A program made the position numbers. This document shows, in pieces, positions 3,001 to 6,000 of a stretch of DNA of 25,194 nucleotides. Numbering within the stretch: position 1 is the first letter of the stretch; each line of letters opens with the position of its first letter. Source of the stretch: a virus (lineage: Duplodnaviria > Heunggongvirae > Uroviricota > Caudoviricetes); the IMG/VR virus record IMGVR_UViG_2684622543_000001; one strand, written 5' to 3'.

Positions 3001-6000
3001 TGCATCCTGTGCGGTGTATTTCCCGTTAGCCAGGTCATACGCGGCCTTAACGGCTTTTGGTGTTGCCGCCAGTGACTCGGAAGTGCTGTTAGTCGCACTA
3101 CTGAGCTGTACTATCCCCTTTTTCGTCGTGCTCGCATCCTCAAGCGCCACGGCGGATGCAATATCCTCTGCCCGTTTTGCCGCTGTCTCAGCGCGCGTTG
3201 CTGCAGATTCCGCCGTACTTTTGCTCTGAGCTGCTGCCGTCGCACTACCAGCAGCCTCTGTCGCCTTCGTGGATGCCGTCGTGGCGCTGCCCTTCGCTGC
3301 TGACGCCTGTCTGGTCGCCTCATCTTTTGAAGCAGACGCCGATGATGCCGATGACGCCGCCGAACTGGCGGACGATGCGGCAGCCGTTTTTGAGGATTCT
3401 GCACGGGTTTCCGACGCTTTCGCGTTCGTTTCGGATGTCTTCGCTGCGGAAGCTGACCTCGCTGCTGCCGTGGCCTGCTCAGTGGCTTCGCCAGCCTTCG
3501 TTGTGGCTGTTGAAGCGGATGATGCGGCGCTTTCTGCCGATTTTCCGGCGGCGGTGGCACTGGCTGAGGCCTGCCCGGCACTTGTTGACGCGGCGCTGGC
3601 AGACGACGCAGCCGCTGTTTTTGAGCCTGCCGCAGCTGAGGCACTCTGTCCCGCTGCCGTTTCAGAAGACCTGGCGTTCGTCTCGGACGTTTTGGCCGCC
3701 TTCGCAGAATTTGCAGCCGCCGTCGCCGAGGAAGCTGCGCTACTGGCGCTTGATGATGCGTTCGTTTCTGATGATTTTGCCGCCTCTTTTGAAGCCGACG
3801 CATCCCGGGCTGAGGTGGCAGCTTCTGACGCTTTCGTGGTCGCGGTGGATGCAGAAGTGGCTGCTGATTGTTGTGACGCTGCCGCATTCGTTTCTAACGT
3901 TTTCGCCGCACCGGCACTGGTAGCCGCCGCGCTTTTTGAGGACTCTGCAGCGGCAGCACTTTTTGAGGCTTCAGTGGCCTTTGTTGATGCCGTTCCTGCG
4001 CTGGAAGACGCTGACTGAGCCGACGAAGCGGCCTGTCCGGCTGACGTGCTGGCTGCACGTGCTGAATCTGCAGCATCAGTCGCATGGGTTGCCGCCTCAC
4101 GGGCTGATGTGCTGGCATCGCTGGCTGATTTCTTCGCGGCTGCCGTGTTCTGTGCCACCGCGGACGCGTTACGCGCCACCTCTTCCACCATCAGCTCAAA
4201 ACGGCGCAGTGCCTCCGGACGGGCATCATCCTCCGTCATGGCACCGAGAAAATCATTCAGCGTACCGGGTCGGGAATCTTCATACACGGTGATGGTCCCG
4301 GCATGTGACGGCGGGAATCCTTCCACCAACAGAATAACGCTGTACTGACCGTACTCAACGTCCATGCTGTAACGCCCGGCTTCATCCGGATTTTCTGAGG
4401 CCAGCGTGTTCACCACCACCGTGGTGCTGTTACGTTTTGCTTTCAGCTGGATTGTGCAGTTCTGTACCGGTTTTCCTGTGCCGTCTTTCAGTACACCTGA
4501 AATCTTTACTGCCATATTCACCCCACAAAAAAGCCCGCCTGAACCGGCGGGCTGTCATAACACTGTGTTACCTGGCTAATCAGAATTTATAACCGACACC
4601 CACGATGAAACCGTCAGTGCGCCAGAGACGTGTTGCTGTGGCGACCGTCATCACTTCCGGTCAGCACATCGTGCGTTTTCCCCTTATTGTCAGTTACGCG
4701 GATATAATCCCCGGAAAAAGTCGACACACGGCTGTAAGCCACACCCGCCATCGCATACGCGCTGAACCATTCATTCACGCGCACAGACGGCCCCGCCATC
4801 ACGCTGAACCAGCGGTTACGCACGGAATCTTCATGCCAGCGGGTATCGCTGTAACGGGTCAGCTGGCGATTCTTGTCTCCTGCATAGCTGAATGACGTCA
4901 CCAGCCCCAGCGTATCCGTAAACTCATAACGGTATTTCACGTTAATCCCGTTCAGATCATCACTGCCGGGAACGTTGGTCCGGGCATGAAGATACCCCGC
5001 GCTCAGCGTGGACTGATGTTCAGACGCCCATGCAGGCGCACCGGATACGGCCAGGCAAATGGCTGCGGACAAAATGGCTGCACAAACTTTACGCATAATT
5101 ACCTCTCGCTTTTCTGCAATAAAAAAGGCGTCATTCCTGACGCCATTTATTGGGGTTATAAATATTTCAACGAATACTGATGCCGGAAGCCGCTTTTTTG
5201 GTCACAATCACCGTACAGTCGGTGATATTGCCTGCCCCCTGATTGCCTTTCTGGAAAATCTTAAACTCCAGAGTGACGCTACCACCACCACTAGGCATAT
5301 CAATAACTGCACTGTAACTACCGGGAATGGCACCTTTAGTTTCTCTGGATGCGATTAATACGCCGTTTTTGCGAACTTCAAAACCATAACCCGTGTATCG
5401 CGTGCCTCCTGGGTTATTTCCGCTCCCCGGATCGTCATACGCTATACCGTTAAAAATAATGGGCGGAATAATAATCTGGCGGTCAAAGTTATGATCATCG
5501 CTTATGGTGACTGTAACCGTCCCGTTTGGTGTTTCCGTGTTACCCCACGTACCAGCCTGTTTCGGAAATGATTTGGATACAGCTTTAACGAAGTCACCTC
5601 TGACCTGAGTCGCCTCCAGCATGCCCTTAATCGTACAGTTTTCATTTACCGTGACATTGTTGAGCGTCCCGGCGTTCGCATTCACACTGCCACTGATATC
5701 CGCATTTTTAGCGGTCAGCTTTCCGTCCGGAGTCAGGGAAAATGCCGATGGATTTCCACCGCTGGTAATGGTGGGGGCCGTCAGGCGTTTCAGGAACACG
5801 TCGTTCATGAATATCTGATCGCCCTGACCAACAAACATCGGTTTTGTGTTGCCATTCGCAGGATTAACCATCGCAATCCTGTCCGCCGCCAGCAGCACCT
5901 GACTCTGCATGCCGTCAGGGGTGTTCTCAATACCGGCACCAATACCCGCGATATAAAGGCGTCCGTCCTGCATCTGCTGCAGCTTCACAGCCCACATGCT

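Follow-up and report, generated by a model that had tools for sequence, protein, structure and literature searches.

The window analysed here is the entire 25,194-nt stretch of the IMG/VR virus record IMGVR_UViG_2684622543_000001, and it comprises the late region, with the head and tail genes, of a phage or prophage of the lambda type, encoded on the minus strand. Eighteen of its structural proteins (Nu1, A, W, B, C, D, E, FI, FII, Z, U, G, T, H, M, L, K and I) match their lambda counterparts over the full length, without gaps and at 94-100% identity. In tblastn searches with the lambda structural proteins, collinear minus-strand matches were found at 8728-9396 for I, at 5173-8664 for J and from 5096 for lom. 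J therefore occupies the position expected of the gpJ family, after H-M-L-K-I and before lom/stf, in the I-J-lom order of lambda. The main features are as follows:

5167-8664, minus strand: J, encoding the tip attachment protein (central tail fibre); an intact ORF of 1165 aa with an ATG start and its stop codon at 5167-5169
5119-5144, minus strand: terminator-like hairpin in the J-lom gap, found by a consensus scan (7-bp stem, 4-nt loop, TTTTTT tail)
4583-5096, minus strand: lom, encoding an Ail/Lom outer-membrane protein of the 434/ev099 type, 38% identical to lambda Lom
845-4521 region, minus strand: side tail fibre gene (ORF 1426-4521, 1031 aa, with an N run inside)
14478-15051, minus strand: V, the major tail gene, with an 81-N run (14635-14715) inside
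6187-7875, plus strand: candidate antisense ORF of 562 aa within J, presumed to be a by-product of the GC-rich J frame

GC-rich coding DNA is expected to contain long antisense ORFs. In the J-lom gap, the hairpin reads GGCGTCA-GGAA-TGACGCC followed by T6, and its counterpart in 434/ev099 reads GGCACCA-GAAA-TGGTGCC; the two paired changes leave the stem perfect. A terminator is annotated at the same place in 434.

A preliminary description of this DNA had stated that all structural genes other than J match the lambda lengths. This held for the 18 genes from Nu1 to I, except V, and failed for lom. The lom gene has lost 83 bp between two CTGGCG direct repeats (junction near 4620-4626), which shifts the frame; its ORF has 160 aa instead of the expected 199, and the gene is probably a pseudogene. 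In V, the parts equivalent to lambda residues 1-112 and 195-246 do not share a frame, and the stretch between them is 164 nt shorter than in lambda. V may be either truncated and frameshifted or affected by an assembly gap or mask; the reading as a truncated gene was set aside because the 164-nt shortfall coincides with the 81-N run. Two further N runs, of 250 nt (507-756) and 232 nt (1922-2153), are present in the window. Positions 1-90 are the end of an IS1 element: complete E. coli genomes matching from base 1 annotate an IS1A transposase there, and others match only from base 91. We take the terminal sequence at the window start to be the IS1 inverted repeat.

Given the frameshift in lom and the Ns inside V, the element could be a defective prophage in which J has fallen out of use, and the IS1 end at the window start would also fit such decay. 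That J is a functionless relic whose mosaic structure was simply inherited is nevertheless very unlikely. J and the 18 comparable head and tail genes are full length, the latter gapless and close to lambda, whereas the defect in V overlaps masked or unassembled bases and may be an artefact, and lom is dispensable. Moreover, even a true relic status would leave the identity of the J allele unchanged.

The window J is a functional-looking member of the lambda gpJ family. At 1165 aa, it exceeds lambda J (1132 aa; NC_001416, 15505-18903) by 33 residues, as had been described before, and its translated N-terminus is that of lambda J. The complete gpJ domain series was found in lambda order, with all six Pfam models above the curated cut-offs: FNIII-A_GpJ (86-207), Phage-tail_3 (330-498), Ig_J (610-714), Ig_J_second (718-818), Phage_Tail_Tip (872-1000) and Ig_GpJ_C, the 'C-terminal receptor binding domain' (1029-1164). 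The protein and its gene were aligned with J of lambda, 434, ev099 and Stx2_EH2201, and the following parts were distinguished:

6250-8664, minus strand: J aa 1-805, hub domains and two FNIII/Ig domains, lambda-like
5815-6249, minus strand: J aa 806-950, alternative alpha-helical-shaft and upper beta-prism module
6067-6159, minus strand: two insertions relative to lambda J, aa 836-856 (21 aa) and aa 860-866 (7 aa), from the alignment gap table
5665-5814, minus strand: J aa 951-1000, linker conserved across J types (lower beta-prism)
5170-5664, minus strand: J aa 1001-1165, receptor-binding domain of the phage-434 type (Ig-like, Pfam Ig_GpJ_C)

Within aa 1-805, the window protein is identical to lambda at 782/805 positions (97.1%), to 434 at 787/805 (97.8%) and to ev099 at 789/805 (98.0%), in each case with no gaps. 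The preliminary description, which had the N-terminal ~800 aa near-identical to lambda and the C-terminal part divergent, was therefore right about the former; the latter is not a single divergent block. Identity to lambda falls to 51% in aa 806-950, returns to 96% in aa 951-1000 and drops again to 42% in aa 1001-1165. The extra length had been placed in the receptor-binding part, and this was mostly wrong: 28 of the 33 extra residues are the two shaft insertions, outside the receptor-binding domain and outside 5167-6000, so that the 'longer receptor-binding region' is mostly a longer shaft. A length difference lying elsewhere had been named as the outcome that would count against the description, and this is largely what the alignment gave, yet the C-terminus is indeed not lambda-like.

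Specifically, the last ~150 aa had been called unlike lambda, and over the last 165 aa only 65 of 154 aligned positions are identical, with five indels. The 31-residue peptide quoted earlier from the end of J occupies aa 1072-1102. Relative to lambda, the indels (+2, +6, +1, +2 and -6) add only 5 aa net. Indel hotspots in the specificity region of natural J homologues have been reported at lambda positions 1012, 1048, 1077 and 1107 (Maddamsetti et al., PMC6646904), and all five tip indels lie at or near these hotspots and in predicted loops. With this identity and these indels, the tip is not of the lambda LamB-binding type, as defined by residues 960-1132 with lambda loop lengths. Against phage 434, the same segment is identical at 156/165 positions (94.5%) with 0 gaps, and its high identity and shared indels make it a 434-type tip. 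It is also closely related to the tips of Stx2_EH2201 (160/165, 97.0%) and ev099 (158/165, 95.8%), both gapless. The last 108 nt of J match Stx2_EH2201 and not ev099.

Structure prediction of the C-terminal domain, which had been proposed as a check, agreed with the assignment to the gpJ family. The AF2 model of the tip (22 homologues, pLDDT 80) is an all-beta domain. Its best Foldseek matches in the PDB were the lambda central tail fibre (8xck and 8xcj) and the A8 gpJ713 (9wca and 9wcb), with E values of ~1e-16 (4e-16 for 8xck) and TM scores of ~0.7; a PDB sequence search ranked the four structures in the same way. Of these, 8xcj is a complex with LamB and 9wcb a complex with OmpC of EDL933. 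The lambda Ig-like receptor-binding domain has four distal loops (PMC11101478).

The tip fold is thus shared with lambda, and more distant siphophages are known to use LamB (PMC11101478), which could suggest that LamB is still the receptor and that the tip has drifted neutrally within one specificity. We consider this extremely improbable. The tip shares only 42% of its residues with lambda, and every predicted receptor-contact loop region contains indels; moreover, host range classically separated its near-identical relative 434 from lambda, and this sequence is the h434 allele.

The central tail fibre of 434 has been described as targeting OmpC (PMC12502783), and 434 requires outer-membrane protein Ib, that is, OmpC, according to Hantke (1978) as relayed in PMC12502783 and the Eligo papers. 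Because the window tip is near-identical to that of 434 and 434 is reported on OmpC, OmpC is named here as the probable receptor: judged by homology, the window J most probably binds OmpC and not lambda's LamB. The earlier suggestion of a receptor other than LamB is supported on the same grounds. OmpC use has been shown experimentally for two further J tips of distinct sequence, A8 and phi330 (PMC12502783, PMC11338833), the latter with a reported 35-40% identity to the 434 and lambda tips. The hybrid lambda h434 imm21, which carries the h434 host-range allele, switches from lambda to 434 sequence in J at nt 2115-2133 (codon ~706-711) and is 434-like from there to the end of the gene. The 434 lom, stf and tfa genes are also present in this hybrid, so the hybrid alone fails to map OmpC use to J. 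In the literature searched, including Mathieu 2020, no receptor data were found for phages with this J (ev099, Ayreon, phi458, mEp332, PhiR34_1 and phiSTEC1575-Stx2k).

The window tip differs from that of 434 by 9 of 165 residues. Three of these, at positions 1136, 1138 and 1143, belong to a predicted distal loop in which the population is polymorphic, with I/Q/G in the window and in Stx2_EH2201 and V/H/R in 434. Among 20 distinct tip sequences, the variable sites cluster at 1077-1078 (D/S and D/Y/H), 1088-1089, 1127 (G/R) and 1136-1143 (1136, I/V; 1138, Q/H; 1143, G/R/W), and the variable sites from 1077 to 1143 are all within predicted loops of the Ig-like domain. This clustering in the sequences is consistent with diversifying selection on putative receptor contacts.

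Such loop substitutions might have shifted the specificity, so that the tip uses another porin or outer-membrane protein (e.g. OmpF or PhoE) or only a host-specific OmpC allele. A few J mutations switch lambda and phi21 among LamB, OmpC and OmpF (see, among others, PMC6646904), and the range of OmpC alleles differs between the gpJ tips 1A2 and A8 (PMC11338833): the engineered tip 1A2 delivers via OmpC of EDL933 and not via OmpC of K-12 (PMC11338833). Since gpJ tips discriminate between OmpC alleles, the OmpC allele range of the window J is not predictable. A shift away from the specificity of 434 is nonetheless unlikely, given the close, indel-free match to the tip of an OmpC-using phage. Moreover, E. 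coli Stx prophages such as Stx2_EH2201 carry the I/Q/G loop variant, and 9 of the IMG/VR loci encode a tip identical to that of the window; being this widespread, it is a common allele and no recent escape variant. OmpC thus remains the preferred reading.

The side tail fibre gene is long. Over the N-terminal 285 aa its product is 88% identical to lambda Stf, and the C-terminus matches lambda orf314 at 63% identity. The adjacent tail fibre assembly gene (845-1426) is 93% identical to lambda Tfa. The Stf of Ur-lambda has been reported to bind OmpC, and by analogy the J tip and the side fibres may target one porin.

The second divergent region, aa 806-950, comprises 145 aa in the window and 117 aa in both lambda and 434. 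Over the 117 aligned positions, its identity is 51% to lambda, and that to 434 is 51-52%, whereas it reaches 99.3% to ev099 and 98.6% to Stx2_EH2201. At the DNA level, the shaft module is 64% identical to lambda and 98.4% identical to ev099. The two insertions are separated by 3 aligned residues and total 28 aa, equal to four heptads; in the DNA alignment they show in columns 405-523. In lambda gpJ, the second FNIII domain is followed by an alpha-helical shaft (809-861), a beta-sheet prism forming the central straight fibre, and the Ig-like receptor-binding domain (PMC11101478). The insertions fall at lambda positions 835/836 and 838/839, which is the junction of the two lambda shaft helices (PMC11101478). 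A single-sequence AF2 monomer model of aa 796-960 was poor overall (mean pLDDT 54), and only the secondary structure of its confident stretches was used. It placed one helix at aa 821-836 and a second, long one at aa 843-899, separated by a break at NGQLAP, with pLDDT values of 79-89 for ~aa 845-885 and low values elsewhere. As the insertion lies between the two lambda shaft helices and is predicted to be helical, we infer that it is a four-heptad extension of the lower shaft helix.

Between the shaft and the tip, aa 951-1000 are identical to lambda at 48/50 positions and to both 434 and ev099 at 45/50, the three references other than lambda giving 88-90%. The linker DNA (nt 5640-5819) is likewise closest to lambda among the four references (91.7%, vs 87.8% for ev099). 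Engineered gpJ chimeras use this conserved linker as their joint (lambda aa 964), and it acts as a recombination joint between the shaft and tip modules.

Sequence comparison therefore resolves J as a mosaic of a lambda-like body, an alternative, longer helical shaft and a phage-434 tip. Homologous recombination would have assembled it from three exchangeable modules. The first, the hub and FNIII body (aa 1-805), fits the neighbouring lambda-like M, L, K, I and H proteins. The second comprises the shaft and upper prism, with a lower helix predicted to be ~28 residues longer than that of lambda; if the insertion is fully helical, the closed central fibre would be ~4 nm longer. The third, the 434-type tip, is attached via the conserved linker. 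By analogy with the lambda gpJ-LamB and A8 gpJ-OmpC complexes, the distal loops of the trimeric Ig-like tip would enter the extracellular mouth of the trimeric porin. Binding would then spread the three tips, and the change would travel up the prism and shaft, opening the tail tip. The helical nature of the insertion, its effect on fibre length and this triggering mechanism are all inferred from the comparisons above.

Shaft and tip are exchanged independently of each other. Lambda_ev066 combines this shaft (98.6%) with a different tip (43%), and 434, mEp460 and 2B8 have a lambda-type short shaft (~41%, tblastn) with this tip (95-99%). Among the IMG/VR loci that share the linker/tip junction 60-mer and this tip, the long shaft occurs in 45 and the short one in 40. 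Additionally, a third shaft type, also long (~60% identity), was found in O157-type Stx phages. It has already been published that the J specificity region circulates as an evolutionary module of its own (PMC6646904).

The four-heptad extension might not be neutral. It could tune the distance that the tip spans across O-antigen or capsule, or alter the shaft flip by which the tail opens, in its force or its threshold, and together with I1136/Q1138/G1143 it could give an OmpC-allele or host range unlike that of 434. Two points speak for this idea: long and short shafts combine freely with the same tip, and polymorphic positions gather in predicted distal loops. We nevertheless regard it as rather unlikely.

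The J allele is already known and very common, and it belongs to a well-studied protein. Over the whole 1165-aa J, 95.5-96.4% nucleotide identity was found to ev099, phi458, Kati, PhiR34_1, cdtI, Ayreon, ev243, phiSTEC1575-Stx2k and mEp332; J of Stx2_EH2201 has the same length and 85.9% nucleotide identity over the whole gene. For the tip by itself, 74 phage records, among them mEp460, 2B8 and Stx phages, reach 90% identity or more; outside this set, 434 and lambda h434 imm21 were matched at the DNA level and by direct alignment. For the shaft module by itself, 65 phage records reach 95% or more. Of 5426 complete E. coli genomes, at least 1168 contain the shaft-plus-tip stretch (coverage of at least 80%). 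More than 120 IMG/VR contigs contain a 60-mer over the window-specific linker/tip junction, and in ten of the loci sharing it the C-terminal 365 aa are identical to those of the window J. Among species-representative genomes, the window-specific J 60-mer was found only in JAGZNZ010000056.1, a contig of 1350 bp binned in a Collinsella sp. MAG, which is almost certainly a mis-binned E. coli prophage fragment.

For phages with this allele, the primary receptor is predictable as OmpC rather than LamB, which helps host-range prediction and the choice of indicator strains. The locus also adds one more case of shaft/tip exchange in lambdoid J, a modularity that is already documented (PMC6646904) and has been exploited to retarget lambda particles to OmpC (PMC11338833).

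Among known systems, ev099, cdtI, phi458, Ayreon, Kati, mEp332, PhiR34_1, phiSTEC1575-Stx2k and Stx2_EH2201 share both the length of 1165 aa and the three-module architecture. They differ from the window J by scattered substitutions only, and the ev099 J is 98% identical to the window protein overall. The 434 J (OL657226, 1137 aa) shares the tip and the lambda-like N-terminal 805 aa with the window J but has the short lambda-type shaft module, and is 28 aa shorter for that reason. Lambda gpJ (P03749; 8iyk, 8xck, and 8xcj with LamB) agrees with the window J in family, domain order and fold, and differs in its shorter, half-identical shaft, in a tip separated by five loop indels, and in its receptor, LamB. 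The A8 gpJ chimera (9wca and 9wcb), in which lambda gpJ is joined at aa 964 to a natural tip from an E. coli prophage, binds OmpC. A8 is the best sequence match among the solved structures (E = 9e-105) and shares its fold with the window tip; however, its tip is only ~48% identical in the Foldseek-aligned region, too distant to count as the same type, and stands on the short lambda shaft. On these sequence comparisons, A8 is a separate tip type that reaches the same probable receptor, OmpC.
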